From an uncultured Chloroflexia bacterium (GTDB lineage: Bacteria > Chloroflexota > Anaerolineae > JAAYZQ01), in contig CAVOXA010000001.1 of the NCBI GenBank assembly GCA_963700285.1, positions 992,001 to 1,056,000 of the forward strand: DNA of 64,000 bases, given 5' to 3'. The position numbers were made by a program, and so were the translations under genes. Shown here piece by piece: positions 1 to 14,976 of this stretch; position 1 is the first letter of the stretch, and each line of letters starts with the position of its first letter. The notes beneath the pieces were generated by a model. That model was not told where the DNA came from, made no database searches, and worked only from the letters and a program-made list of their open reading frames with translations.

Positions 1-298
1 AGAACTGTTGGGCGGCGGAGACATAGATAAGGAGCGTGACAAGACTCAGCAGGGCAATGGCAGCAGGAAAGCGTGTTAGAGCCAGGCGCCACCGGCTGGG
101 CCGCGGGCGGGCTAGCTGGGTGCTCGGCGCACCTGGCTCAGCGTGCGGCTTCACGTGGCCCGTGGGCTGCTGAGGCGCCACCGGGCGAGCCTCGGTTTTT
201 CGCCTGGTGCGGAACGTAGGCTGGGCAATCTCGGACTTGAAGGTCCGGCGCTGCCTGCGTCTCGCTTTCCCCTGCTGCTTGTTCAGCGGTATTCTCAA
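1..298 (-). CDS. ftsQ: Cell division protein FtsQ/DivIB, N-terminal part (runs off the window)
   Basis: Manual translation from TTG at 298, which overlaps the ddl stop: basic cytoplasmic tail (KARRRQRRTFK), then a hydrophobic helix (FPAAIALLSLVTLLIYV). Lies directly after ddl in a dcw cluster. Not in the ORF track. Confidence 0.7.
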   Translation of the reverse strand, partial: MRIPLNKQQGKARRRQRRTFKSEIAQPTFRTRRKTEARPVAPQQPTGHVKPHAEPGAPSTQLARPRPSRWRLALTRFPAAIALLSLVTLLIYVSAAQQF

Positions 299-1434
299 GT
301 CCCTTGCTCCCGGTCCGGCAACTGGTACGATGTGGCGGTACGGCTCTTGTCCTGAAACCGTTCCAATGCTAACTCGATGAGCTGGTGGATCAACTCAGTG
401 TAGGAGACGCCACTGGCTTCCCATAGTTTAGGATACATGCTGATGGGTGTGAAGCCTGGGAGCGTGTTCACTTCGTTGAGATACACTGTGTTTGTGCTTC
501 TCTCCAGCAAGAAATCGACGCGGGCCATTCCCGCACAATCAATGGCTTGATATGCCTCCACTGCCAGTCGGCGCACCAACTCGGCTGTCTCAGCCGGGAT
601 AGGGGCTGGGATCAGCAAGTCAGATTCCCCATCCAGATACTTTGCCTTATAGTCATAGAACTCATTGCTGGGCACAATCTCGCCAGGCACGCTGGCGACA
701 GGATTGTCATTGCCCAGGACGCTGACCTCGATCTCTCGGGCATCTACAGCCACCTCGACCAAGATTTTCCGGTCGTAGCGGGCTGCAGTGTCCAGGGCAG
801 CGCATAGTTCGGAACGATCGTGGGCCTTGGTGATCCCAACGCTGGACCCCAGGTTGGCTGGCTTGACGAAACAATCGTAGCCGATTTCTCCCTCGATCTT
901 GCCCAAAACCGCTTCTGGGTGTTCTTCCCATGCTTTTCGTTTCAGCGCCACCGCACGTACCACCGGCACTCTGTGGGCACGCATTACATCTTTGAAGAGT
1001 ATTTTGTCCATCCCCACTGCTGAGGCTACCACCCCGGCGCCGACGTAGGGAATGCCGGCCAGCTCCAATAGCCCCTGAAGGGTGCCGTCTTCGCCGAAAG
1101 GCCCGTGTAGAATAGGAAAGACCACATCGAGCTGGCGCAACTCTATTGCGGTTATGCTTTGTTGTCCGTCGCCTTTGTCCAGGCGCATAAGACCCCGCCG
1201 GCTGGGCTCGGCCAGAAGGATGGCAGGGTTGCTCTCTGCCATTTTCCCCGAGCTTAGGGCCTTGAGGGGATCGCCCGAAGCAAGCCACCGGCCCTCTTTG
1301 GTAACGCCGATGGGCACGATCTCATATCTTGCCTTGTCTATGGCGCCCATCACGCCTTGAGCGGACATGAGGGATACTTCATGTTCGCCGGAACGGCCCC
1401 CAAAGATGAGTCCTACCACAAGCCTATTTTCCAT
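295..1434 (-). CDS. ddl: D-alanine--D-alanine ligase
   Basis: GGRSGEHEVS, LHGPFGEDG, KPANLGSSVG, EVNTLPGFT motifs; ATG at 1434. Confidence 0.97.
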   Translation of the reverse strand: MENRLVVGLIFGGRSGEHEVSLMSAQGVMGAIDKARYEIVPIGVTKEGRWLASGDPLKALSSGKMAESNPAILLAEPSRRGLMRLDKGDGQQSITAIELRQLDVVFPILHGPFGEDGTLQGLLELAGIPYVGAGVVASAVGMDKILFKDVMRAHRVPVVRAVALKRKAWEEHPEAVLGKIEGEIGYDCFVKPANLGSSVGITKAHDRSELCAALDTAARYDRKILVEVAVDAREIEVSVLGNDNPVASVPGEIVPSNEFYDYKAKYLDGESDLLIPAPIPAETAELVRRLAVEAYQAIDCAGMARVDFLLERSTNTVYLNEVNTLPGFTPISMYPKLWEASGVSYTELIHQLIELALERFQDKSRTATSYQLPDREQGT

Positions 1435-1439
1435 ACTAT

Positions 1440-1510
1440 ATTCTACCAAAGCATCTGTTTTTTTGCAAACCCAACCATGCAGGTCCGAATTTCTTCCATT
1501 TTCTGTTAAT
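1440..1510 (-). promoter_or_regulatory. Sigma70-type promoter for ddl (TTGCAA-17-TAGAAT, extended -10), probably leaderless
   Basis: Minus strand reads TTGCAA aaaaacagatgctttgg TAGAAT atagt ATG. Confidence 0.75.
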
Positions 1511-1545
1511 TCTTGTCTGGATGATCAGTATCCTCTAATTCTGAA

Positions 1546-2544
1546 CTACCATTCACCGATTAGCTCAATCTCCATTTCCAGCTCCAGCCCGAACCTCTCC
1601 AGGACTGTTTGATAAGCCAGGTCGACGAGCCTTTTGATGTCGGTTGCAGAGGCATGGCCAAGATTGACGAAAAAGTTTGCGTGCAGCGGCGAGATCTGGG
1701 CTCCGCCAGAGCACCTGCCCTTTAGACCTGCCTCGTCGATGAGCCGCCCCGCATAGTCACCGCGCGGGTTTTTGAACACCGAACCACAGGTTGCCCCGGG
1801 CGGCTGGTTTGCTTTGCGCCTTGCCGTCATCATGGCCGCCCTTTCTCTCAACGCTTCCGGTTCGGCTGGCACCAGCGCGAATTGGGCGTCCAGGATGACG
1901 ATCTGCTGCCCGCCACTTTCTGTTCGTTGCTTCAGAATGCTCGTCCGGTAGCCATAGTCAAAACGCTCCACCGGCCAAACAAGGACTCTACCGGTTGGCT
2001 CCATGACAGTTGCCTGCTCCAGCGTTGCGGCGATGTCAGAACCCCATGCGCCCGCGTTTCCTATGACTGCACCGCCCACCGTACCGGGTATGCCTGTAGC
2101 CCATTCCAACCCGCCGCGCCCGCGTGCGAGGCAGCGCCGTGCCAATGTCGAGAAAGAGGTTCCACTATCAGCCTTGACCCCTCCGGGAGAAAAAACGATC
2201 GCCCGGGCACGATTGAGTATGACCAGGCCTCGTACTCCTCGGTCACTCACCAATACGTTTGACCCGCCACCCAGCACGCGGCAGGGGACGCCTTGCTGCC
2301 AAGCAAGTATCGCAGACTGGCGCAAGGCCTCAGGATTGGCGGCCGCAACGAGCAAGTCGGCCGGGCCCCCAACGCGAAGGGCAGTGTAGCGGGCCAGGGG
2401 CGCTCCCAAGTGGACCGACTCCGGACCCAATGCCTTCTCCAGGTCGGCGGCCAAGCGGTCGATGCCATGCCGATGCTCCCTCGCTGCCAAGCTCTCACCC
2501 CGGGCGCTTGCTGGCAGCGCCCATTGACCAGCCTGTTTGCTCAT
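1546..2544 (-). CDS. murB: UDP-N-acetylenolpyruvoylglucosamine reductase
   Basis: VGGPAD, LGGGSNVLV, GIPGTVGGA, GSVFKNP, HANFFVN. Confidence 0.95.
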   Translation of the reverse strand: MSKQAGQWALPASARGESLAAREHRHGIDRLAADLEKALGPESVHLGAPLARYTALRVGGPADLLVAAANPEALRQSAILAWQQGVPCRVLGGGSNVLVSDRGVRGLVILNRARAIVFSPGGVKADSGTSFSTLARRCLARGRGGLEWATGIPGTVGGAVIGNAGAWGSDIAATLEQATVMEPTGRVLVWPVERFDYGYRTSILKQRTESGGQQIVILDAQFALVPAEPEALRERAAMMTARRKANQPPGATCGSVFKNPRGDYAGRLIDEAGLKGRCSGGAQISPLHANFFVNLGHASATDIKRLVDLAYQTVLERFGLELEMEIELIGEW

Positions 2545-2619
2545 GATCCGCCGAATGCCCTTATCTTTGCCCGAGACTGCTTGCAGCAGTCTAGCTACTC
2601 CACCATGCCGGTGGCTTCT

Positions 2620-4062
2620 CTAGAGCGCCTGCTCCGAGACCTCGCGGCGCACGCTGTCTCCATTGGTGCCGCTTTCGATGTGCGCCAGAACCCTCTCACC
2701 GATCAAGTAGCCATCCCCGGCTCCTAGTGTGATGACTACATCGCCGGACTCGATCCTGGCCATCAGCATCGAGACAGCAGAGTCCATTGTCTCTGCGTAG
2801 TTGGCGTCGGGATGATTCATATGCATGACCAGATCATCACCGGAAATACCCAAAAGATTCTGTTCCCTGGCGGCATAAATGCCTGTGACGATCACGTGGT
2901 CCGCATCGCTGAAAGCGGTCGCAAAGTCGTCCAGCAAAGTTGCTGTGCGACTGTAAGTGTGGGGCTGGAACACTGCCCAGATGGGCCGGCCCGGGTACTT
3001 GAGCTGCGCCGCGGCCAGCGTCGCCCGGACCTCGGTGGGGTGGTGGGCATAGTCATCCACCACTGTAACCCCATCCGCTTGCCCCTTGAATTCGAAGCGG
3101 CGCGCTGTGCCCTGGAATCGCGTGAGCGCTGCCGCAGCGGTGTCAAAGTCTACGCCGGCCTCATTGCCGGCTGCAATCGCAGCCAGTGCATTCAACACGT
3201 TGTGGCGGCCCGGTATCTGGAGGGCGCAGGTTCCGAGCTTTTTGCCATTCTTCACACTGGCCTTGTGCCCGATCTCAAAGATGGCGTGCTTGCCGAGGTG
3301 TGAGCCTTCTGCCCACCAATCCCAGCGCTGGTCGAGCCCATAGTACTCCACCCGGCGCTCCCGGCCGCCAAAAGATTCGCCCAATTGCCGTGCTTCAACA
3401 TCGTCACCACAGAGGATGAGCAGGCCTCCGGGAGTGACGCCATCCACAAAGACCCGGAATGCGGTTCTCATCTCTTCAAATGTCGGATAACAGTCGGGAT
3501 GGTCGTGTTCCAACACGGTGACGACCGCCACATCGGGCCGTAGCCCCAGGAAGGCGCGGTCATATTCGTCGGCCTCAATCACAAAGTGTGGTCCTGTTCC
3601 GGCCCGAGCATTGGTTCCCAGGTTCTGCAGCACGCCTCCGACAATGAACGTAGGATCCAGTCCAGCCTGAACCAAGATCCAAGCGATCATGGCGCTGGTG
3701 GTGGTCTTGCCGTGGGCGCCAGCCACAGCGATTGTGATCTTTTTATCTGTCAATTCGCCCAAGATCTGCTCGCGCTTGACCATGGGTATCCCCTGCCGCA
3801 CAGCCTCAACGATCTCAGGATTATTGTTAGGTACTGCTGAGGAGACAATAACCAGGTCCGTACCGGCGACCCAATCGGCCCGGTGCCCCTCGTGTACGGC
3901 GATGCCCTCTTCAATCAACTCCTGGGTCAGGCCCGTCGGTCGTTGGTCAGAGCCCGATACCTGGAAGCCCAAGCCATGGAGTACGCGCGCAATGGCAGAT
4001 AGCCCGATGCCGCCGATGCCCACGAGGTGTATTCTGTTGCCTGGTTGCAGCAGTGGTGCCAT
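2620..4062 (-). CDS. murC: UDP-N-acetylmuramate--L-alanine ligase
   Basis: IHLVGIGGIGLS, AGAHGKTTTS, EADEYD, DDYAHHPTE, FQPHTYSR. Confidence 0.96.
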   Translation of the reverse strand: MAPLLQPGNRIHLVGIGGIGLSAIARVLHGLGFQVSGSDQRPTGLTQELIEEGIAVHEGHRADWVAGTDLVIVSSAVPNNNPEIVEAVRQGIPMVKREQILGELTDKKITIAVAGAHGKTTTSAMIAWILVQAGLDPTFIVGGVLQNLGTNARAGTGPHFVIEADEYDRAFLGLRPDVAVVTVLEHDHPDCYPTFEEMRTAFRVFVDGVTPGGLLILCGDDVEARQLGESFGGRERRVEYYGLDQRWDWWAEGSHLGKHAIFEIGHKASVKNGKKLGTCALQIPGRHNVLNALAAIAAGNEAGVDFDTAAAALTRFQGTARRFEFKGQADGVTVVDDYAHHPTEVRATLAAAQLKYPGRPIWAVFQPHTYSRTATLLDDFATAFSDADHVIVTGIYAAREQNLLGISGDDLVMHMNHPDANYAETMDSAVSMLMARIESGDVVITLGAGDGYLIGERVLAHIESGTNGDSVRREVSEQAL

Positions 4063-4069
4063 TGCCTGC

Positions 4070-4612
4070 CTACCTGAATATGATGGCCAGAAGCAGAAGC
4101 ATGCCCAGCAGCAGCATTGGAAACGGACTGAAATCATTCATGAGTGACACCGGTAGAAACGGGATGATAGCGTCGTTTAGCTTTGAGAATGGAGATGTGA
4201 CGATCTCGAGGGTGGGCCAGTAATACTCGGCAAGGTCCGTGACATTCCAGATGGTACCCACGACGAGGTATCCGTTGAGCAGCCCAATTATGTATCCGAA
4301 AATGTTGTTCAAAATGCCCTTCAACTTGAGCGGGAATCGCAGCACGATGCCCTCGTAGGCAATAAAGGCAACGATCAAGATGGCTGTAGTATAGTAGAGT
4401 GCCTCGATCTGGGCCGCCGTGAGCTCTCCAAACGGGCTTGACTGTACCAGGCTGACGAGGGCATCGCCAGCCAGATCCCAGCCGAACCAAAGTGCAAATA
4501 GTGTGAGGGCCAGGACAGCACCAGTTCCAAGCTCCTTGGCCACACCACGCACGGCGCCAATGACTCCGAATACAAAGATAAGCGTGAACCAAAAATACTC
4601 GACAGGGATCAT
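4070..4612 (-). CDS. CvpA-like multi-pass membrane protein
   Basis: About 4-5 hydrophobic segments; 'GAVRGVAKEL' and 'FGYIIGLLNGYL' resemble CvpA; ATGA overlap with the murG stop. Confidence 0.6.
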   Translation of the reverse strand: MIPVEYFWFTLIFVFGVIGAVRGVAKELGTGAVLALTLFALWFGWDLAGDALVSLVQSSPFGELTAAQIEALYYTTAILIVAFIAYEGIVLRFPLKLKGILNNIFGYIIGLLNGYLVVGTIWNVTDLAEYYWPTLEIVTSPFSKLNDAIIPFLPVSLMNDFSPFPMLLLGMLLLLAIIFR

Positions 4613-5757
4613 CGATCTGCTCCTGCCTGACCAACCGAATGACGGCGAGCCACCAACCACAGTACCTCGGCAATTGCATCTGCCGCGTCTGGCCGGGCCA
4701 TGGCTTGGGCTGATTCTCGCATATCTGCCAGGGCCTGGTGGTTGTCGATAAGCCTCAGAATTGTGGGAACCAGTTTCTGAGACAACTGGGCATCGGCAAG
4801 TACTTCCGCCGCGCCGTTGCGAGCCATGTACCTTGCATTCGGCTCCTGGTGCTGTCCCGAATAGGGATAGGGTATGAGAACAGCGGGCAAGCCGGCCGCG
4901 GGGAACTCGCCCATGGTCGCGGCACCCGAACGGGCGACGGCCAGGTCAGCAGAAACCAGTGCTTGCGGCATCTCGTGCAAGAAGTCAAAGTGATGATAGT
5001 TTGCTTTCAGCTCCTCTGGTAGACTTTGGGCTGCGTCGGCCACCCACTCGGCGTCCAACCGCCCGGTCACGTGCAGGATCTGGCATTTGGGTAGCAATTC
5101 CTGTAACCCTGCTACCAGAGCTTGATTGATACTGCGGGCCCCTCGGCTGCCACCGAACACGACGACGGTCTTTTCTTCTGGCTTTAGCTTCAGAGCTTCT
5201 CGTGCACGTGTCCTGTCTAGCGTGTAGATCTCAGACCGCACGGGGTAACCCGTCACCACAACCTTGTCCCGGCGCAGATGTTGGTAAGATTCCTCGCTGG
5301 TTACGGCGACCTTCTTCGCAAAGCGGCTCAAGAGCCGAATAGCTATTCCGGGCACGATATCTGGCAAATAGATGACGACGGGAATTCGCTGGATGCGGGC
5401 AGCCAGTGTCGTCGCGACACAGGCATAGCCCCCCGTAGCAAGGATCACGTCGGGCTTGAAGCCTGAGAGAATCGCGCCTGCTTTTCTCACGCTGGCGGCA
5501 ATCTGGGCTGAATTGTATACTGTCTCGGTGGCTTTCTTGCCGCGGATCCCCCCGGCAGCCAGCTCGACGAACTTTAGCCTGGTATGCTCTACAAGCTCCT
5601 TTTCGAGCCCGTCCTTGCTTCCCACCCACAGTATATCGGTAGGTTTCAACGTGGGCAGCGAGGTGCCCGCGGGCTTGGAGCTGAGAAATCGGTCCACGAC
5701 GGCCAGCGCCGGATAGACGTGCCCGCCGGTACCACCGGCCGATACCAGGAGTTTCAT
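4609..5757 (-). CDS. murG: Undecaprenyl-PP-MurNAc-pentapeptide GlcNAc transferase
   Basis: GGTGGHVYPALA, TGGY, FGGSRGA, RSGA, HQEPNA. Confidence 0.96.
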   Translation of the reverse strand: MKLLVSAGGTGGHVYPALAVVDRFLSSKPAGTSLPTLKPTDILWVGSKDGLEKELVEHTRLKFVELAAGGIRGKKATETVYNSAQIAASVRKAGAILSGFKPDVILATGGYACVATTLAARIQRIPVVIYLPDIVPGIAIRLLSRFAKKVAVTSEESYQHLRRDKVVVTGYPVRSEIYTLDRTRAREALKLKPEEKTVVVFGGSRGARSINQALVAGLQELLPKCQILHVTGRLDAEWVADAAQSLPEELKANYHHFDFLHEMPQALVSADLAVARSGAATMGEFPAAGLPAVLIPYPYSGQHQEPNARYMARNGAAEVLADAQLSQKLVPTILRLIDNHQALADMRESAQAMARPDAADAIAEVLWLVARRHSVGQAGADR

Positions 5758-6857
5758 GGCTTCACGTGTTCCGTGTTCACGGCTCGTGAGATGCTCAACA
5801 TGATGCCAACCCCAATCATACAGGTTACCAAAGAGGAACCGCCAACGCTAATGAATGGCAGGGCGATTCCGGTGAAGGGGATGGTCCCGGTCACTACGAG
5901 AAGGTTGATCAACGCCTGGAATGCGATCCAGCAAGTGACCCCGATGGCCAGAAGGCTCCCAAAAGAATCCGGGGCCAGGCGGGCAAGCCGAAAGCCACGG
6001 TAGGTCACCAGTGCAAAGAGGGCGACAACGGCCAGGCCGCCCAACAAACCCAACTCTTCGCCAACAATGGCAAAAACGCTGTCGGTATGGCGTGCTGGCA
6101 GCCACTGGTACTGCATCCGCCCATTCCCTGGTCCCAAACCGAAAAGACCTCCGCTGCCGAGGGCGAGCAATCCCTGACTCAATTGGTAGTTGGGGCAGGC
6201 GAAGGGATGCTTCCAGCATTCGAGAAACGGCGATAGCCGCTCCAGCGCCGTATCCAATTGGCTAACCACAAGGACAAAGGCTCCAATGCCCCCCAAGATA
6301 CCAATGACAAACTGCAGCACGCGCGCACCGGCCAGGAAGAACATGGCCAGGGCTACCAGAACGATGACCATTGCTTCAGAGATGTCGGGCTGGGCCATGA
6401 CCAAACCTGCGATCACGCCAACCATGATTGTGAAGGGCAGCAAGCCATACGGAAGCTTGCGCAAAAGTTCACCCTTGGAGGAAAGCCAGTGGCCAATATA
6501 GATCACCACAGCGAGCTTGGCCAATTCCACAGGCGATACTGACTGGCCTAGCAATTGTCGTCTATCGCCGAGAATGACGAGGATGATGAGCATGAGTACG
6601 GTGGTTGCCATGATTAGAATGGAGAGTTTGGTCCAGTGCCGATAGTCAAACCACGCGGCAAAAACCATGGCCACCGTACCGATCCCGAGCCAGATTAACT
6701 GGAGCTTGAGGTGGTGTGACTGATCCTCAAAGTTGCGGTAGCCCCAATCGGCAGTGGAACTGAATACCATCATCAGCCCCACGGTGATCAGGGCAACCAG
6801 CGCGCCAACCAGGATCCAATCGGGCGATCGCAGTAACTTGGGCTTTGCTTCTTCCAT
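5754..6857 (-). CDS. ftsW: SEDS peptidoglycan polymerase FtsW
   Basis: PVELAK, QPD, GSGGLFGLGPG, LPARHTDSVFAIVGEELG, LPFISVGGSSL. Confidence 0.93.
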   Translation of the reverse strand: MEEAKPKLLRSPDWILVGALVALITVGLMMVFSSTADWGYRNFEDQSHHLKLQLIWLGIGTVAMVFAAWFDYRHWTKLSILIMATTVLMLIILVILGDRRQLLGQSVSPVELAKLAVVIYIGHWLSSKGELLRKLPYGLLPFTIMVGVIAGLVMAQPDISEAMVIVLVALAMFFLAGARVLQFVIGILGGIGAFVLVVSQLDTALERLSPFLECWKHPFACPNYQLSQGLLALGSGGLFGLGPGNGRMQYQWLPARHTDSVFAIVGEELGLLGGLAVVALFALVTYRGFRLARLAPDSFGSLLAIGVTCWIAFQALINLLVVTGTIPFTGIALPFISVGGSSLVTCMIGVGIMLSISRAVNTEHVKP

Positions 6858-6860
6858 TGT

Positions 6861-8330
6861 TCACCTCAGTGCTTTCACCAAGCTCTGAAAATGCTTTCCT
6901 CGTGCCACAAAATCTCGGTAGACATCAAAACTGGTTCCTCCAGGAGAGAGAAGAACCACATCGCCGGGACGTGCTACCTGGCTCGCAAGCTCGACAGCAC
7001 GGTCCAACGTCCCCGCATGGTGGATCTGGCAGGATCTGATCCCCGAAGGTTCAGCATCCTTCATTGCCTCTTCGATGAGCGCGGAGGCTTCGCCAAAGAG
7101 AACCAGGTGACTGACTCTTTGCCAGGCCAACGCAGCCATCTCCTGCCAGGGCAGGTGTTTGTCTCGCCCTCCAGCTAGTAGCACGATACGATCATCGGGA
7201 AATGCCCGGAGGGCGGCCACGGTCCGCTCTGGCGTCGTGGCGATGCTGTCATCGTACCAGCGTATTCTATCTTTCTCTCTACACAATTCCAGCCGGTGAT
7301 CCACACCGCGAAAAGTCGTGACCGCCTGGCGCACGGCCTCTATGGGCGCAGCCGCTGCAGCGGCCAGTGTGCATGCCGCCAGGGCATTGGCCAAATTGTG
7401 GTGCCCCAATAGTTTCAGGTCCGCTGTCTGGCAGACTACCTGGTCGCGCCCTGCCAATCGCACTACCAGTGCGCCGTCCTGTAGAAAGGCACCCGATGTT
7501 ACTTTTTGTCTGGTACTGAACCATAGTATCCTCCTTTTAACGTTTCCGATTTCTCCCATCTGCCGCACGATAGGATCATCCAGGTTCAAGATGGTCGTGT
7601 CTTCAGGTTGTTGGTGAAGCAAGATCTGTGACTTTGCGGCGACATAGGCTTCCATTGACGAGTGACGGTCCAGGTGATTGGGCGTGATGTTGAGCACAGC
7701 GGCGATGGGAGGGCTCCAGCCCGCACGATCAAAGATCTTTTCCTGTGCTTCACCCTTTTGTCCATCCCTCCCTTTGCTGGTGCACGGTGCAAAAAACTCC
7801 AGTTGGAAACTCGAAAGTTCCATTACTACAACATCTGTTGGTGTGATTTCTCCCAGATGACCCACAAGTGGCCGCCCGATATTGCCTCCAACCCAGGTCC
7901 TTCGGCCTGCGGCTTTGAATATCTGCCCAACTAGGGCCGTCGTGGTCGTCTTGCCACTTGATCCCGTGATCCCCATCACTGGCACTGGACAAAGCTGGCT
8001 GAACAAGCGTGTTTCGCTACTCAGCGGCAGGCGTCGTTGCCGTGCCTCGCACAGAAGCGGGATCCCCAAAGGTACACCAGGACTGACAAAGAGAATATTC
8101 ACCTCATCCAGCAGTGCCAGTGGGTGCGCGCCCAGTACAAAGGTCACCGGTAGGCCAGACAGAAATGCCATGTTTTCGGCCACTGCAGCTGCTGGCTGCA
8201 TGTCCGTGACGGTCACGCGAGCGCCGTGCTCCACCAAGAAACGGGTCAGGGCAGTTCCCTCGCGCGCCAGCCCCACAACCAGGGCCTGTACGCCAGTAAA
8301 ATCTGGCCCCTTGCCTCTAGCGCTGTTCAT
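6861..8330 (-). CDS. murD: UDP-MurNAc-L-Ala--D-glutamate ligase
   Basis: VSPGVP, GITGSSGKTTT, ELSSFQLE, NITPNHLDRH, DDSIATT, LLSPGGTSFD. Confidence 0.95.
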   Translation of the reverse strand: MNSARGKGPDFTGVQALVVGLAREGTALTRFLVEHGARVTVTDMQPAAAVAENMAFLSGLPVTFVLGAHPLALLDEVNILFVSPGVPLGIPLLCEARQRRLPLSSETRLFSQLCPVPVMGITGSSGKTTTTALVGQIFKAAGRRTWVGGNIGRPLVGHLGEITPTDVVVMELSSFQLEFFAPCTSKGRDGQKGEAQEKIFDRAGWSPPIAAVLNITPNHLDRHSSMEAYVAAKSQILLHQQPEDTTILNLDDPIVRQMGEIGNVKRRILWFSTRQKVTSGAFLQDGALVVRLAGRDQVVCQTADLKLLGHHNLANALAACTLAAAAAAPIEAVRQAVTTFRGVDHRLELCREKDRIRWYDDSIATTPERTVAALRAFPDDRIVLLAGGRDKHLPWQEMAALAWQRVSHLVLFGEASALIEEAMKDAEPSGIRSCQIHHAGTLDRAVELASQVARPGDVVLLSPGGTSFDVYRDFVARGKHFQSLVKALR

Positions 8331-8444
8331 GTTTTCTGAAATCCATCCACAGACCAACGGCTAACCTGCGACGGGCCAGGGCAGAGACTCTCCATCCGGT
8401 CCGCGAATACGCGGCGAATCCACAGACAAGCAGTGTAGGAGCAA

Positions 8445-9516
8445 TCACAGCAGCGCCAGTGCGATGCCGAGCATGGCGGCCAGTACGCCAATGATCCAGA
8501 ATCGTTGTGTGACCTGTGTTTCGCTCCACCCTGATAGCTCAAAGTGCAGGTGAAGTGGTGTCATTTTGAATACGCGGCGACCAACTCCGTTCAGCCATCG
8601 AGTCAGCTTAAAGCAGGTCACCTGAATCGTCACTGATCCGATCTCAGCCACAAAGATCAGGCCAACGATGGGCAGGAGCAACCATTGAAACGACATCAAC
8701 GCGACGACCGCCAGGGTTGCTCCCAATGCCAGGGAGCCAAGCCCGCCCATGAAAAGATCGGCCGGGTGGGTATTGAACCAGAGAAAGGCGAACAATGCGC
8801 CCACCATGGCGAAAGAGAAAGAAAGCAAAGGGAACTGCCCCTGCAAAAAAGCAATGATCCCGTAGGCGACAAAGGCCACGATTGCGATTGAGCCTGCCAG
8901 ACCGTCCAGCCCGTCGGTCAGATTGACCGCGTTGGCCATGCCAACGATGATCATCGTCGCGATGGGCACGTACCAGATGCCAACGTCGACTACTTCCTCC
9001 ACTGTCGGGATGCCTACTTCGTGGAGGGCCAGGAACTGGGGATGATACAGCCCGATGGCAGCCACCAACGCCAGCAAAAACTGAAGAGGGAACATGATCC
9101 GCGCTCGAAGACCCTTGCCACCAAACCAGCCACGTACCTCAGCAAGATCGTCAATGGCGCCCAATATCCCAAAACCAACCATGACCAGGAGTGGCAGTAG
9201 GATGCTCTTGCCAATCAGCGCGCTGCCTTCCTCAAAGTCAAAGAACGCCAGGATCGCCTTGCCAGCTTCAAAGCCGCTCAAAAAGTTGGCAAAGTTCATA
9301 ACGACTGTGATGAGCGATGACCGGAATCAGAAACATCAAACCACCCATGGTTGGCGTGCCCATCTTGGTCTGGTGGCTTGTTGGGAGTTCGACCCGGATC
9401 TCTTTGCCTATACGCCACCGGCGAAGAAGCCGGATAAGCGGTGGCCCCCAGATGACGGCGAGAAAAAACGCTACAGTACCCAGCGCCAGGGCAAAGGGCA
9501 TTGGTTGAGATGTCAT
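8445..9516 (-). CDS. mraY: Phospho-MurNAc-pentapeptide transferase; one frameshift near 9317, probably a sequencing error
   Basis: N-terminal part (KMGTPTMGG) in ORF 9268-9516; remainder ([24 protein letters not shown]) in ORF 8445-9299. Removing one base gives the continuous [13 protein letters not shown]. Confidence 0.9.
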
Positions 9517-11009
9517 AGCCGGCGCTCCTTGAATTGTGGAGCAGTCACCCTCTGTGATTGGGTCAAGCTGGCTACAATCTCCTCCATCGCCACTCCGCGC
9601 GACCCCTTGATCAAAACCCGGTCATCTCCCGTTCCAGCTTCTATGAGGGCCTTGAGCAATGCAGTGGCCTGGGCGTTGGTTTCGACCGAGTGTACAGCAT
9701 CCGGGTCCATACCCATCATCAGGGCTTCCTGGCCAATGGTTCTGGCCAGCGGACCGACGGTGATCAGCAGGTCGGCAACGCCACGTACCCGGCGGCCTAC
9801 AAGCTTGTGACCCTCCTCTTCGTACTGCCCCAACTCGAACATGTCGCCCAGAACAGCGATCTTGCGCCCCCGGATGTCGTCCAGCAGATTCAGCGCGGCG
9901 ATGCACGAGGCGGGACTGGCGTTGTAGGTGTCGTCCAGGATGATAGATCCGGCTGGACCTGGCACAACCACCAGTCGCAACTGGGCCGATTGGTCGTGCA
10001 GTCCAGCCATGATCTCTTCCCAGGATAGTCCTTCTGTAAGTCCAACTGCTGCTGCGCGTAGGGCGGTGTGGACACTGTGCCGACCCAGCATGGGGACCCG
10101 GGCATAGACAAGCTCCTGGCCGTAGTGGAACCGGAAATGGATGCCTTCCAGTCCCTCACTCTCGATGTCGTCGGCCCACAGGTCCGAGCTGGGATCCAGG
10201 CCATAGGTGAATACCCGGGCCCTTGTCTGGTCTGCCATGGCTCGTACCCACTCGTCGTCAGCGTTTAGGATGGCGATGCCCCCTTCCTCCGAGGATGGGA
10301 GGGCCTGGGGCAACTCGGCCTTTGCCTGGGCTATGCGCTCAAGGGTGCCGAGCCGCTCCAGGTGGCTAGGTCCGACATTAGTGACCACGCCTGTTTGAGG
10401 TTTGGCGATCTCGGCCAGTTCTGCGATCTCACCAGTGTCATACATGCCCATCTCTAGCACCACGCGTTCGTGGTCTGCAGTCAGATGCAACAGGGTCAGG
10501 GGCAGGCCGATCTCGTTGTTGTAGTTGCCCTCACTTTTTAAGGTACGATACCGCTGGCGGACGACGGCGGCGATGACTTCTTTGCTGGTCGTTTTTCCGA
10601 TGCTGCCGGTAATGCCAATGACCTTCACGCTGTGCTGCTGCCGCCAATAAGCGGCCGCACGTTGGAGCGCTGCCAAGCTGTCCGGAACAACCAGGCAAAC
10701 CGCGTCCAGGTATCTGCAAACCCGCACATCGCTTCCTTCGACGTTATAGCAATTGGCAATGTCTGGAACGTTTTCAGCGATGATGGCCACCGCGCCCCTG
10801 CGAATGGCCTCCGGGATGTAGTCATGGCCATCGTGCCGCTCGCCCCGCAGAGCGATGAACAGGCAGCCGGGGCCAGCCAGGCGCGAATCGATGACCGTGT
10901 TCTTGAGCCGGATCGTGTCCGGTTTGGGTACAACCTCAGTTTCCGGTGATCTGTCTGCAAGCCCGGCTATCAGGTCGGCCAGCGTCAAGGTGCCAGATCT
11001 CTTTGCCAT
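9513..11009 (-). CDS. murF: UDP-MurNAc-tripeptide--D-Ala-D-Ala ligase
   Basis: [53 protein letters not shown]. Confidence 0.95.
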
Positions 11010-11017
11010 GGCTCACG

Positions 11018-12745
11018 CTATCGCTGTGCCTGACGGATCTCGTCGGGCGGGATCTGCCGGTATACCAGCAGTCTCTGAGCAATGGCCCGAAAAGCGGGCG
11101 CGGCTGTGTAGGCTGCCCACCGGGATGCTTTGGGTCTGTCGAGCTTGACCAAGACGATAAAGTCGGGGTCGTCGGCTGGTGCGTATCCCACAAAAGAGAC
11201 AATAGTGTCGGTAGGGTGGTAGCCAACGGCTGTCGGGATCTCTGCCGTTCCCGTTTTGCCGGCGATGCGATAGCCATGTATGCGCGCCTCAGTTGCCTTG
11301 CTCTCCACCACCTCTACGAGCATATCGGTCAGTGTTGTCGCTGCCTCCGCAGAGATTGCCGCTCGGACCACTTCAGGGTCGACGGTCGTCACCTTTACCC
11401 GCCCACTCGCCTCATCTTGGATGATGTGTTGTTGTACGATGTGCGGCCTCATCAGCAACCCTTGATTGGCCACCGCTGCCACGGCGGTGATCATCTGCAT
11501 GGGCGTAACAGCTATGCCTTGGCCAAAGGAGTTGGTTCCCAACTCTGAGGGGAACCAATCCGAGTCGCCAGGCAGCTTCATCCTCCCTGGTCCTTCGCTG
11601 CCGAGATCCACGGTGGTTAGGTTGCCAAAGCCAAAACGCCTGAGGTAGGTGTAGAATTGGTCTTTCCCCATGGTCGTGCTCACATAGGCTGCCACTGTGT
11701 TAAGCGAGAGGGCCAATGCTTCGGTCATTGAGACCTCACCATGTGCTTTGCGGTCCGAGTTCTCAATTGTCCGGCCACCTACTTCCATCTGCCCCTTGTC
11801 AAAGACTTTCATCTCGGGAGTGATGGTGCCCGAATCAAGGCCAGCGCTCCAGGTCATGATCTTGAAGATTGAGCCCGGCTCCCACATGCTGCTAACCGAT
11901 GGATCTGCGAGAAGGGTAGGCTCCGCGCTGGCAAACTCGTTTGGGTCGAAGGTTGGTAGACTGACGACGGCCAGCAACGCCCCCGTTTTGGGGTCCATGA
12001 CAATCACCGTCCCGCTTTCGGCTCTAAACTGATCTATCGCCTTTCGCAGTTCCTGCTCGGCGATATGCTGGATATTGAGATCCAGCGTCAGAACCAAATT
12101 GGTACCGTCCTCAGGCGGGCGGTAATCCTTTGGAGGGCGCGGGATAGGAACTCCGTAGGGATCTACTTCGATCTGCTGTGTCCCAAAGAGTCCTTTCAGT
12201 ACGGGGTTATAGTAGCCTTCTACCCCATAGAAGCCGTCACCTGTACTGTTGACGATACCAAGGGCGTGAGAAACCAGATCGGCCATTGGATAGACGCGTA
12301 TGGGCCGATGCTCGCAGATGAGGCCATCGATCTCCAGTCCTGCGATGGCTTCTCCAAGTTCGTGGGGAACATCCCGAACCAGAGGCCGCCAAGGCTCGTC
12401 GGACTCGAGTTGGACCTTTAGCCATGCTTCATCCAGAGCCAGGGCACCCCCCAAAACACTGACCAGATAGTCTGGCTCCGTAACCAGGCTTGGTGAGACA
12501 GAGATGTCCCATAGGTTCTTATTCATGGCCAGGATGTGACCGTTTGTGTCGGCGATATAGCCCCTGGGTGCCGGCAACTCAACCGTTCGCTGGCGCTGTC
12601 TCTCGACCAAGCCCGTGAGATCGGCGTGCACCAGCACTTGATAGCGAACGAGTTGTGCGACGACGATAGCCAGGCCAAAAGTCAGGAACAAGCCTAGCAC
12701 CGTCAGTCTGCGAAAATCCAAGTTGGCCTTCTTTTCAGTGTTCAT
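11018..12745 (-). CDS. ftsI: Class B penicillin-binding protein (FtsI/PBP2b-like)
   Basis: N-terminal TM, RGYIAD, EPGSIFK (SxxK), SLN, GKTGTA. Confidence 0.9.
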   Translation of the reverse strand: MNTEKKANLDFRRLTVLGLFLTFGLAIVVAQLVRYQVLVHADLTGLVERQRQRTVELPAPRGYIADTNGHILAMNKNLWDISVSPSLVTEPDYLVSVLGGALALDEAWLKVQLESDEPWRPLVRDVPHELGEAIAGLEIDGLICEHRPIRVYPMADLVSHALGIVNSTGDGFYGVEGYYNPVLKGLFGTQQIEVDPYGVPIPRPPKDYRPPEDGTNLVLTLDLNIQHIAEQELRKAIDQFRAESGTVIVMDPKTGALLAVVSLPTFDPNEFASAEPTLLADPSVSSMWEPGSIFKIMTWSAGLDSGTITPEMKVFDKGQMEVGGRTIENSDRKAHGEVSMTEALALSLNTVAAYVSTTMGKDQFYTYLRRFGFGNLTTVDLGSEGPGRMKLPGDSDWFPSELGTNSFGQGIAVTPMQMITAVAAVANQGLLMRPHIVQQHIIQDEASGRVKVTTVDPEVVRAAISAEAATTLTDMLVEVVESKATEARIHGYRIAGKTGTAEIPTAVGYHPTDTIVSFVGYAPADDPDFIVLVKLDRPKASRWAAYTAAPAFRAIAQRLLVYRQIPPDEIRQAQR

Positions 12746-12774: not shown

Positions 12775-13248
12775 TTATTTCTCAGGCCCTGGCTGCAGGT
12801 TGCCAAAGACAGATTCCAACAAAGAGGATGGTTGAGATACGGTTATCTCTTCAGCAACAGCGCTCAGCGCGAATGGCGCCTGATCAATCTGGCTGTCTGT
12901 GTGTGGTGCAATCGGCTGCGACAACTCCAAGTATAGCGGCTCTTGCAGTACATACCCTCCTGTTTCTACACGCGGCGCCATGGCGCGCGGTGACTCGCCT
13001 TCCGCAATCTTGAGCAGGAGTGCTTGCGTTTCACGTTCCAGTCGGTCAAGCTGCGCTTCTCCCTCCAGGATTAGGCGACCTGTCGCCGCGGTCTGCATGG
13101 ACACCAGCAAGTGCAGCCAGCCGAACAGAATGAGCAGAGCTGCAAATACGGCAATGGCGACTCTCAGGGACGGGAGGCGACTTGTCACGTGTACTTGTGA
13201 GCGTTCTCGAGCCTGAGGTACAGGAACAGGTAGTGAATGGCTGGCCAT
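12775..13248 (-). CDS. ftsL: FtsL-like bitopic cell division protein
   Basis: TM helix followed by a coiled coil (AQLDRLERETQALLLKI); lies between rsmH and ftsI; RBS GGAAGGAG. Confidence 0.6.
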   Translation of the reverse strand: MASHSLPVPVPQARERSQVHVTSRLPSLRVAIAVFAALLILFGWLHLLVSMQTAATGRLILEGEAQLDRLERETQALLLKIAEGESPRAMAPRVETGGYVLQEPLYLELSQPIAPHTDSQIDQAPFALSAVAEEITVSQPSSLLESVFGNLQPGPEK

Positions 13249-13266
13249 GATCCGCTCCTTCCCTGA

Positions 13267-13313
13267 CCACTATATCTAGTGGCTCACGGACTCGAGCACA
13301 CAAGATAGCGGTC
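13267..13313. promoter_or_regulatory. Tandem NrdR-box-like sites in the ftsL leader
   Basis: Palindrome CCACTATATCTAGTGG (13267-13282) and a weaker ACACAAGATAGCGGTC 31 bp away (13298-13313). Confidence 0.65.
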
Positions 13314-13321
13314 TATACTAT

Positions 13322-13390
13322 ATTCTACCATAAACTGCTGATTTTTGCAAATTCAGTTCGATTCTACGCAAATTTCTTCTGATTGTTAAT
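13322..13390 (-). promoter_or_regulatory. Internal dcw promoter upstream of ftsL (TTGCAA-17-TAGAAT)
   Basis: Minus strand reads TTGCAA aaatcagcagtttatgg TAGAAT; near copy of the ddl promoter. Confidence 0.75.
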
Positions 13391-13504
13391 CTCTTTGTAC
13401 TCAATCAAGGCGCTCAGGCACCGATCTGAGAGTAAATGGCAGTTTTCTCTTATTGCCTCCCTGATTCCGTAACCAATCGTGTGTAATGCAATAATGGAGA
13501 GGAT

Positions 13505-14443
13505 TTATCTGACTCTGTCTGAGAGACGTTCCGCAATCCTCAGCTTGGCGCTGCGACTTCTGGGATTTACGGTGACCTCTTTGTCACTGGGCCGGATTGG
13601 TCTGCGGTTAATGATCTGCAACGTCGCCCGATGTTGGCAGACACAGACCGGAATTTCTGGTGGGCAGATGCAGTCTCGTGCTTCTTGCTGGCAGAAGCGC
13701 TTGACTACCCTGTCCTCCAGGGAATGGAATGAGATAACGGCCAACCGCCCTCCTGGCCGGAGCACGTTCCGGGCGTGGTGCAGGGCTTGCGACAGGTTCT
13801 CAATCTCGTTGTTCACGGCAATGCGCAACGCCTGAAATGTCCGTGTTGCTGGGTGGATCTTTTCGCGCGTGCGCGTGGTCCGTGCTACCAGCTCTGCCAG
13901 TTGTCTGGTGCTGGAGATCGGGCGCGCGCTGACAATGGCTCTCGCGATCCGGCGAGAATGGCGCTCATCGCCATACCTCCACAAAAGTCCAGCCAGTTCG
14001 GCTTCTGGCAACTGGTTGACCAGATTCTCAGCAGTCAGTCCCTGACTAGGGTCCATTCGCATGTCTAGAGGGCCATCCTGCATGAAGGAGAAGCCTCGCT
14101 GGGCGTCCGCCAACTGGCGGGATGAGAACCCCAAGTCGAGAAGCACTCCATCCACGAGACCAAACTCCACAGTGGCAATCACGGCCTCCAGGTCTCGAAA
14201 GTTGGCAACCTTCGCGATCACCCGGCCGCCAAATGGACGAAGAACCTGGCGGGCAAAGGCGACTGCCTCCGGATCGGCATCGAGTCCAAGTACTTGCCCA
14301 TCGGGGGCAGAGGCGTGGAGGATACTGGCTGTATGCCCTCCGGCGCCCAGCGTGGCGTCAAGATACCTACCCCCGGGCCGAACCTGAAGTCCGGCGACAA
14401 TCTCGTCAGTTAGGACTGGAACGTGTTCGCTCGCCCCGTCCAT
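13505..14443 (-). CDS. rsmH: 16S rRNA m4C1402 methyltransferase
   Basis: HVPVL, DATLGAGGH, DLGFSS, PLDMRM, HPATRTFQALRIAVN, ISFHSLEDR, NPRSRSAKLR. Confidence 0.97.
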   Translation of the reverse strand: MDGASEHVPVLTDEIVAGLQVRPGGRYLDATLGAGGHTASILHASAPDGQVLGLDADPEAVAFARQVLRPFGGRVIAKVANFRDLEAVIATVEFGLVDGVLLDLGFSSRQLADAQRGFSFMQDGPLDMRMDPSQGLTAENLVNQLPEAELAGLLWRYGDERHSRRIARAIVSARPISSTRQLAELVARTTRTREKIHPATRTFQALRIAVNNEIENLSQALHHARNVLRPGGRLAVISFHSLEDRVVKRFCQQEARDCICPPEIPVCVCQHRATLQIINRRPIRPSDKEVTVNPRSRSAKLRIAERLSDRVR

Positions 14444-14453
14444 GCGCGCTGCT

Positions 14454-14885
14454 CTAGATGCCCAAGCTGGAGAACTGTTCGGCGCGTGCTTCGGGATCCT
14501 TGTAGCTTTCTAACTGACGCTCTCGCCACTGCTCCGGGTTCCAGATCTCGCAATAGTCGTGCAGACCAACAACAATTGCTTGATTGTCAATGTTCGCATA
14601 TTCGCGAAGGTATGGGGGCAGGTTTACACGTCCCTGTTTATCCGCTGCTGCGTCCGAGGCGCCGCCAAAGACCTGACGGCGAAACTCGCGGGCCTTTGGG
14701 TCTGTTCGTGGCAGGGCGCTGATCTTCTCCGCAAGCCCTTCCCATCCATCCGTGGGGAAGAGCCACAGGCAAGGGTCAATTCCTTTTGTTACAACCAGAC
14801 CCGCGTCCAGTTGTTTCCGGAATCTGGCCGGGATCGTGAGCCGCCCCTTGTCATCGACTGTATGCTCGAATTCCCCTAGGAACAT
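14454..14885 (-). CDS. mraZ: Transcriptional regulator MraZ
   Basis: MFLGEFEHTVDDKGRL...DKQGRV...EIW. Confidence 0.97.
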   Translation of the reverse strand: MFLGEFEHTVDDKGRLTIPARFRKQLDAGLVVTKGIDPCLWLFPTDGWEGLAEKISALPRTDPKAREFRRQVFGGASDAAADKQGRVNLPPYLREYANIDNQAIVVGLHDYCEIWNPEQWRERQLESYKDPEARAEQFSSLGI

Positions 14886-14894
14886 CTATGCCCC

Positions 14895-14906
14895 GAACAT
14901 CTGTTC
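14895..14906. promoter_or_regulatory. LexA (GAAC-N4-GTTC) box next to the mraZ ribosome-binding region
   Basis: cGAACatctGTTCt, 10-21 nt upstream of the mraZ ATG. Confidence 0.6.
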
Positions 14907-14910
14907 TGTT

Positions 14911-14976
14911 CACCCACCTTCCACCACATACCACCACTTTCACCCACATTATACTATGTGGGCCCCATTTTGGCAA
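14911..14976 (-). promoter_or_regulatory. mraZ promoter (TTGCCA-17-TATAAT) with four 10-bp-periodic MraZ binding repeats
   Basis: Minus strand AATGTGGGTG AAAGTGGTGG TATGTGGTGG AAGGTGGGTG, starting within the -10 element. Confidence 0.85.

Follow-up and report, generated by a model that had tools for sequence, protein, structure and literature searches.

A pair of NrdR-type boxes, one strong and one weak at a period of 31 bp, was found behind a promoter predicted inside the dcw cluster, directly in front of an ftsL-like gene, in the genome of an uncultured Chloroflexia bacterium (G000, the genome under study). The pair lies within the 64,000-nucleotide stretch of DNA that was analyzed (the window). 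NrdR proteins of family members carry Anaerolineae labels, and G000 is likely to belong to that class of Chloroflexota. It probably represents an NrdR operator, at which dATP/ATP-loaded NrdR would bind and damp the transcription of ftsL-ftsI-mur through to ftsQAZ. As the ftsL pair is conserved and matching pairs occur at division and replication genes across the family, it is likely that G000 and its relatives tie the expression of division genes to the supply of DNA precursors, and the sequence data are best read as an enlarged NrdR regulon to which division genes belong.

All elements of the site are ordered along the minus strand. The predicted sigma-70 promoter (13322..13350, minus strand) consists of the -35 hexamer TTGCAA (13350-13345), 17 bp, and the extended -10 element TG-n-TAGAAT (13330-13322). 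The weak box (13298..13313) sits 8 bp behind this predicted and conserved -10, in the promoter-proximal position, where it covers the inferred transcription start. It is separated from the promoter-distal strong box (13267..13282) by a 15-bp spacer (13283..13297), which sets the box-to-box offset of 31 bp and whose length is kept in the sister species genome G001 and in the metagenome relative L068; boxes and spacer were annotated without strand. The strong box is an imperfect palindrome with seven of its eight pairs complementary, and it carries all six conserved positions. Six bp further on lies the Shine-Dalgarno AAGGAG (13255..13260, minus strand; assigned from sequence), followed by the ATG of the ftsL-like gene at 13248.

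This gene (12775..13248, minus strand), the first behind the candidate operator, was identified by synteny between rsmH and ftsI and by profile matches below the cut-off: FtsL_Actino was found in 14 of 15 family orthologues (best E 1.8e-10), and a Pfam scan left the window's FtsL unrecognised. It is followed by an ftsI-type penicillin-binding protein gene with the Pfam domains Transpeptidase and PBP_dimer (11018..12745, minus strand) and by open reading frames from a Mur ligase, assigned by Pfam, to ddl (295..11009, minus strand). The order within this last segment is presumably Mur ligase (murF-like), mraY, murD, ftsW, murG, cvpA-like, murC, murB, ddl, where the names murD, ftsW, murG, murC, murB, mraY, and ddl were assigned from translations and gene order. 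The cvpA-like gene and ftsQ were named by search, as were ftsA, ftsZ, nrdR, and nrdJ of the G000 cluster. The cluster is headed by rsmH and mraZ (13505..14885, minus strand; open reading frames and Pfam), and since these genes lie upstream, the ftsL promoter is internal to the dcw cluster. A sequence-only reading of the window had proposed two 16-mers offset by 31 bp upstream of the ftsL Shine-Dalgarno, both downstream of a predicted -10, and both were present as described. Its placement of them in the leader of an ftsL-ftsI-mur operon holds insofar as the first gene is ftsL-like, but has to be amended for a promoter that has mraZ and rsmH upstream.

The promoter, both boxes, and the Shine-Dalgarno are all contained in the 256-bp gap between rsmH and the ftsL-like gene, and no terminator was found between rsmH and the ftsL promoter. 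Three promoter-like sites were found, compared with 0.3 +/- 0.5 in shuffles, and the predicted ftsL promoter core is kept in G001, L068, G002, G013, and L070. The site is covered, with zero and one differences, by contigs from two public runs that belong to separate studies (X11, 13154-13304; X7, 13243-13410), and it is therefore not an assembly artefact. A further public run, X1, matches the spacer of G001 and was not considered independent. Two other sequence features were noted in the neighborhood. GTGG-type direct repeats occupy window positions 14890-14950, between the predicted mraZ promoter and the mraZ start codon, which would be expected for MraZ autorepression. In addition, another motif that recurs, approximately AACCTTAAAATT or the reverse of it, was seen at window positions 13389-13398 and at the nrdR, dnaA, and mraZ promoters of relatives, 40-90 bp upstream of those promoters across the class; few exact copies occur in G000 (0-3), and the motif is possibly the site of another regulator.

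The boxes were compared with the known biochemistry of NrdR. According to the accessible part of PMC9110341, the dATP/ATP-bound NrdR tetramer occupies two boxes separated by three turns and obstructs RNA polymerase, its span equals the 31-bp period, and DNA is read by D15, R17, and RRRR; the accessible part of PMC12051234 confirms a spacer class of 14-17 bp. The ftsL pair agrees with this period, being composed of two 16-bp partial palindromes and a 15-bp spacer. In the available sections of PMC13584703, both boxes are required, with no binding to one box by itself. C4 and G13 are described there as critical and A6 and T11 as important, together with a central A8-T9 or an A+T content from C4 to G13 that has 63% as its lower limit. 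The strong box has C4, A6, A8-T9, T11, and G13, with an A+T content of 7/8. The weak box, read on the minus strand, has C4, A8, T9, T11, and G13, while its position 6 is C (G in L068), so that A6 and T11 are not present in both boxes, and its A+T content of 5/8 is at the stated lower limit. C4 and G13 are present in both boxes in G000, G001, and L068. The same sections report that A6C strongly lowers affinity for the E. coli and S. coelicolor NrdR proteins and, when placed in both boxes, cut affinity more than 20-fold, that E. coli nrdAB box 0, which carries C6, bound at 6.9 uM, and that NrdRs bind foreign operators. Among the relatives, the natural nrdR operators of G005, G018, and G019 have A6G. 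The A6C change of the weak box counts most strongly against function, and it predicts that the operator is likely to be of low affinity at best. The pair also departs from reductase operators in its target, as ftsL-ftsI-mur follow it directly.

A palindromic NrdR matrix was trained on nrdR promoters from relatives outside the genus of G000 (27 of 29). Scored with this matrix, the strong box was the top single site in the 7.05 Mb genome (22.4 bits), and its closest genome-wide match was the nrdR promoter itself, with which the ftsL promoter shares a layout of a box 7-8 bp behind the -10. The weak box alone scored -2.8 bits and on its own would go uncalled. Seven pairs of at least 19.5 bits were found in G000, compared with zero or one in each of 20 column-shuffled matrices; of pairs of at least 17 bits, six had the 31-bp spacing, compared with zero to three at any one of the other spacings between 18 and 69. 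Only three of 407 promoter-like sites in G000 carried a pair of at least 12 bits, two of them being the nrdR and ftsL promoters and the third preceding an aminotransferase locus. No pair was found at the recA and rplM promoters of G000 (three promoters), and, as a negative control, none of the family genomes had a pair before mraZ, murC, ftsQ, ftsA, or ftsZ. Across the class, a strict pattern had matches in 74 of 201 genomes, with no control match among those listed, and 50 loci inspected by translation were mostly nrdR or nrdJ promoters.

Several sites outside these comparisons were also observed. Strong single boxes without a 31-bp partner occur at L152:2253 (G000:C4:72252), behind the -10 of a pyruvate phosphate dikinase gene, and at L153:2649 (G000:C15:168148), before an AllG-family gene, with 21.8 and 22.2 bits, respectively. 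Copies of an NrdR-type pair are repeated within single genomes, at C15:29815 and C1:236154 of G000, as four identical copies in G040, and as six near-identical copies in G194, which suggests an operator carried by a mobile element.

Between G000 and G001, the footprint changed at one of 32 box positions (none of 16 in the strong box and one of 16 in the weak box), compared with five of 15 spacer positions and 38 of 157 positions upstream of the -35. In L068, whose FtsL is 69% identical, the pair is in place with 7.2 and 15.8 bits. A pair of 15.6 and 17.1 bits was also found at the same promoter in G013, shifted over the -35, the -10, and their spacer. G013 falls on a different branch from G000 (FastTree supports of 0.994 and 0.995; deep nodes were weak), and the shifted register together with the different branch suggests a separate gain or turnover. 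Overall, the ftsL pair was present in three of the 19 family genomes scored (20 were found, one of them without upstream DNA) and in one of three metagenome loci recovered through an FtsL search, L068. It was absent from the other 16 genomes, including G002, and from L069 and L070. G002 and L070 are the closest relatives outside the G000-G001-L068 group; they keep the promoter and have no pair, and their related promoters show decayed boxes. An FtsI search of named genomes returned nine loci, which were left out of the counts, as eight were distant and L071 repeated a counted site; the alignment of FtsL varied too much to serve for a scan of loci. A strict regular-expression scan of 30 regions downstream of rsmH recovered only G000 and G001, and it was dropped because it missed G013, which the matrix had found.

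The occurrence of pairs at other promoters of the division cluster varied among relatives. At the ddl-ftsQ-ftsA-ftsZ promoter, located at the murB-ddl junction, a pair of 20.8-32.4 bits was present in 10 of the 16 family genomes that have the junction. G000 and G001 keep this promoter, which in the window is predicted at 1440..1468 (minus strand), and its box has decayed in their genus (-3.4 bits). The ddl-ftsQAZ promoter looks to be the ancestral target in the family, with the genus of G000 having lost that box and having the ftsL pair. The ddl (window 1440-1500) and ftsL (13313-13400) internal promoters of G000 are alike beyond their core hexamers, with an alignment score of 85 compared with 49.5 +/- 5.3 in shuffles and reached in none of 1000, and one could be a copy of the other. 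A distance of 5 bp separates the end of the ddl promoter from the ATG, which would make the ddl message nearly leaderless. Among ten complete family clusters, six had a pair upstream of ftsZ and four (G006, G011, G015, and G021) had none.

In other families, a pair at mraZ, ftsA, or murC was found in nine of 74 clusters, always intergenic, and was absent from the remaining 65. These comprised three of 14 clusters in one set (before cvpA-murC, ftsA, and mraZ) and six of 60 in another (before mraZ, and in one cluster also before ftsA); the 60 had been picked for long contigs out of 130 matches, and the matrix may lose sensitivity in distant families. Counting clusters of the larger set with a pair of at least 17 bits, six had it at 31 bp, two at 32 bp, and at most two at any other spacing. 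A G132 match located 2.2 kb upstream of mraZ was excluded. In G043, pairs were found at both mraZ and ftsA, nrdR-nrdJ lies on another contig, and a different gene follows ftsZ.

Just beyond the window, the G000 cluster continues on the same strand as ftsQ-ftsA-ftsZ-nrdR-nrdJ, a feature that had escaped the sequence-only reading. Two computational checks named by that reading gave results in line with its proposal: the pair upstream of ftsL was kept in G001 and L068, and nrdR was found in the genome and is intact in the sister G001. The nrdJ gene, 17 kb beyond the ftsL pair, encodes the only ribonucleotide reductase found in G000, and a class III enzyme was not found in this 89% complete genome. 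The nrdR product of G000 matches TIGR00244 above the cut-off, and its promoter carries a pair of strong boxes at a distance of 32 bp, located 7 bp behind the -10. At the ftsZ-nrdR junction of G000, a terminator-like hairpin is accompanied by a separate operator of 39.6 bits; hairpins of -24 kcal/mol or lower occur at this junction in 17 of 19 clusters, with T-rich tails only in some. One nrdR copy per genome was found in 39 of 41 relatives, and the G001 NrdR, 163 amino acids long, keeps D15, R17, and RRRR.

The nrdR frame of G000 is broken near codon 21 in the assembly, probably by an assembly error, as ftsA, ftsZ, and nrdJ are broken too. Single-base frameshifts were seen in nrdR, nrdJ, ftsA, and ftsZ (L003:9500-15350) and also in mraY (window 8445-9516), all of which are probably assembly or sequencing indels; nrdJ is also split in G001. 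G000 encodes a second ATP-cone protein, for which no NrdR match was found. Its gene encodes a P-loop kinase motif that looks uridine-kinase-like and follows an apparent tmRNA gene (L004:7760-8365 and about 8515-8870).

A genome-wide search with the 31-bp pattern in 23 family genomes yielded 139 matches, compared with 67 for a reversed control. The neighbors of 40 sites included dnaA, dnaN, an XerC/D-type recombinase, a PrsA/SurA-type foldase, LysM-PA14 proteins, a gyrase-B-type gene, and purL. Pairs of at least 12 bits at 31 bp were present in 15 of 27 dnaA loci (30 fetched, three too short; at most three at other spacings), in 10 of 17 xerD-like loci (at most two at any other spacing), and in 10 of 30 prsA-like loci (at most three at any other spacing), although these counts are not independent events, because kin share sites by descent. 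Like the ftsL site, these pairs mostly consist of one strong and one weak box. For dnaN, the 12-bit cut-off gave four of 21 loci at 31 bp and four at 21 bp, so that the 31-bp spacing did not stand out at this cut-off, and a weaker pair at -62 to -67 was found in 18 of 21. The dnaA, xerD-like, and dnaN sites are present in G000, and the prsA site is absent.

The positions of these sites differed from gene to gene. The dnaA pair lies about 240-630 bp upstream of the gene and is conserved across the family (G000:C1:626825-626871, L140:2326; loci L180-L209). No DnaA box within one mismatch of the consensus was found in the 1.3 kb around it in G000, where it is thus not evidently oriC. The other G000 pairs map to G000:C9:132588 (L142:2589) for the xerD-like recombinase and to G000:C10:1463639 (L141:2140) for dnaN. 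At the prsA/surA-like foldase (L210-L239), the pair sits just behind the -10 in 10 of 30 loci and was not found in G000 or G001. Pairs seen in single genomes (L167:2012 and L169:775 in G010, L175:2055 in G017, and L178:2038 in G009) precede two LysM-PA14 genes, a gyrase-B/ParE-type gene, and purL.

We infer as likely that the predicted ftsL promoter fires, that NrdR binds there, that the effect is repression, and that the physiological purpose is as follows. When replication is idle, dATP would rise, and an NrdR tetramer would bind the pair and bend the DNA. The bound NrdR would hinder initiation at the ftsL promoter and perhaps also passage from the mraZ promoter. When forks drain the dNTPs, the expression of ftsL-ftsI-mur-ftsQAZ would increase along with that of nrdJ and dnaA. 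From the weak proximal box, a lower affinity is expected than at the nrdR-nrdJ operator, and hence a partial repression that would lift first. The coupling of septal peptidoglycan genes to dNTP status suggested by the sequence-only reading gains from the recurrence of NrdR-type pairs at the cluster, dnaA, xerD-like, and prsA-like promoters, but it is weakened by the A6C of the weak box and by the patchy placement at ftsL (3/19).

Other explanations of the site were considered. One that we regard as unlikely is a degenerate or relic site, whose weak partner is too poor for a tetramer, leaving ftsL unregulated in this genus or controlled only in a single-box mode as proposed for Pseudomonas topA. 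The score of -2.8 bits with A6C would fit such a decay, given that two boxes are needed in vitro (accessible part of PMC13584703), and so would the resemblance of the ftsL promoter to the ddl promoter, of which it could be a copy, and the decayed boxes at the related promoters of G002 and L070. However, the weak box and the spacing were conserved while the spacer drifted, L068 has a different and better weak box at the same place, and the dnaA, xerD-like, prsA-like, and ddl sites of the family as a rule combine a strong and a weak box at 31 bp. The location of nrdR-nrdJ at the end of the same cluster raises another alternative, a rather improbable one, in which NrdR only limits the transcription that reaches nrdR-nrdJ past ftsZ and the division genes are bystanders. 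In G000 and most relatives, nrdR-nrdJ indeed follow ftsZ on the same strand, and nrdJ is the only reductase found in G000 (89% complete). Against this stand the hairpin and the 39.6-bit operator that separate ftsZ from nrdR, the lack of linkage between any reductase and the dnaA, xerD-like, and prsA-like sites, the nearer ddl promoter left unguarded in G000, and the two cluster pairs of G043 with nrdR-nrdJ unlinked; as this unlinked case rests on one genome, the alternative is weakened only.

A different Anaerolineae transcription factor that reads the same or an overlapping palindrome at cell-cycle promoters has a still smaller chance of being the explanation. The non-reductase sites do tolerate changes that model NrdRs dislike, and the dnaA pair of the family, far upstream of the gene, is not in the classic position for a repressor. 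Yet the matrix that detected these sites was derived solely from nrdR promoters, the 31-bp period is the span of the NrdR tetramer (PMC9110341, in its accessible part), most relatives (39/41) have a single nrdR, and the second ATP-cone protein of G000 has a kinase motif and no NrdR match. A chance match, or a by-product of the TGTGG extended -10 motif of this lineage, is hardly credible. Half a box resembles that motif, and the strong box of the ddl promoter directly adjoins its -10, but at ftsL both boxes are downstream of the -10, and the shuffled matrices, the three of 407 promoter-like sites, and the specificity for 31 bp all argue against coincidence.

NrdR is otherwise described as acting almost solely on reductase genes, and in the literature consulted paired boxes are reported at reductase operons alone. 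If the NrdR operator reading holds, it would bear on how division is coordinated with DNA replication in bacteria that grow without stress, as the dATP pool would be a direct transcriptional input to division, with a paired operator at septal and peptidoglycan genes, at several cluster promoters, and at dnaA. A broader proposal, for which we see about even chances, is that NrdR acts as a cell-cycle regulator in part of the Anaerolineae. As a single dATP sensor, it would act on nrdJ, dnaA, dnaN, the genes of an XerD-like recombinase and a PrsA-like foldase, and the division cluster by means of strong-plus-weak operators of graded strength, cluster control would have been gained or moved repeatedly (mraZ, ftsL, murC, ddl, ftsA), and replication and division would be linked without the SOS response or nucleoid occlusion. 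Sites of the ftsL type also offer natural variants for asking how degenerate a second box may be. No publication describing division genes under NrdR control was found in a search of the open-access literature; outside that search lie the RegPrecise Chloroflexi regulogs and the comparative study of 2005, which might list some targets. In the accessible parts of PMC4898720, PMC3223726, and PMC3781837, no NrdR site at division genes was found.

The ftsL pair resembles the NrdR operators of reductase genes (S. coelicolor nrdRJ and nrdAB; E. coli nrdAB, nrdHIEF, and nrdDG) in having two 16-bp partial palindromes with a 15-bp spacer, C4 and G13 in both boxes, a position over or just behind the transcription start (predicted at ftsL), and an NrdR with D15 and R17 encoded nearby. 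It differs from them in its division and peptidoglycan targets, in one degenerate box (A6C), in its internal promoter, and in a place within the cluster that varies between lineages. Rodionov and Gelfand reportedly described, in 2005, single NrdR boxes at topA in Pseudomonas and dnaA in Shewanella. These are likewise non-reductase, replication-linked genes, and the family of G000 also has a dnaA site, but the topA and dnaA boxes of Pseudomonas and Shewanella are single, whereas the sites of this family are 31-bp pairs and include division genes. The accessible part of PMC4409342 describes activation of topA through one NrdR box. In the portion available of bioRxiv 10.1101/2025.03.28.645925, topA was unchanged in RNA-seq, the box is single at non-reductase genes such as Shewanella dnaA and Pseudomonas topA, and pairs are confined to reductase operons in E. 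coli and P. aeruginosa, where these are also the only operons that respond via boxes to the loss of nrdR. Control of the dcw cluster by a transcription factor is also known from MraZ autorepression, as far as the accessible sources describe it, and mraZ heads the cluster in G000. In those sources MraZ reads direct repeats at the first promoter, whereas the pair of palindromes at ftsL belongs to an internal promoter, and dATP would be its signal.
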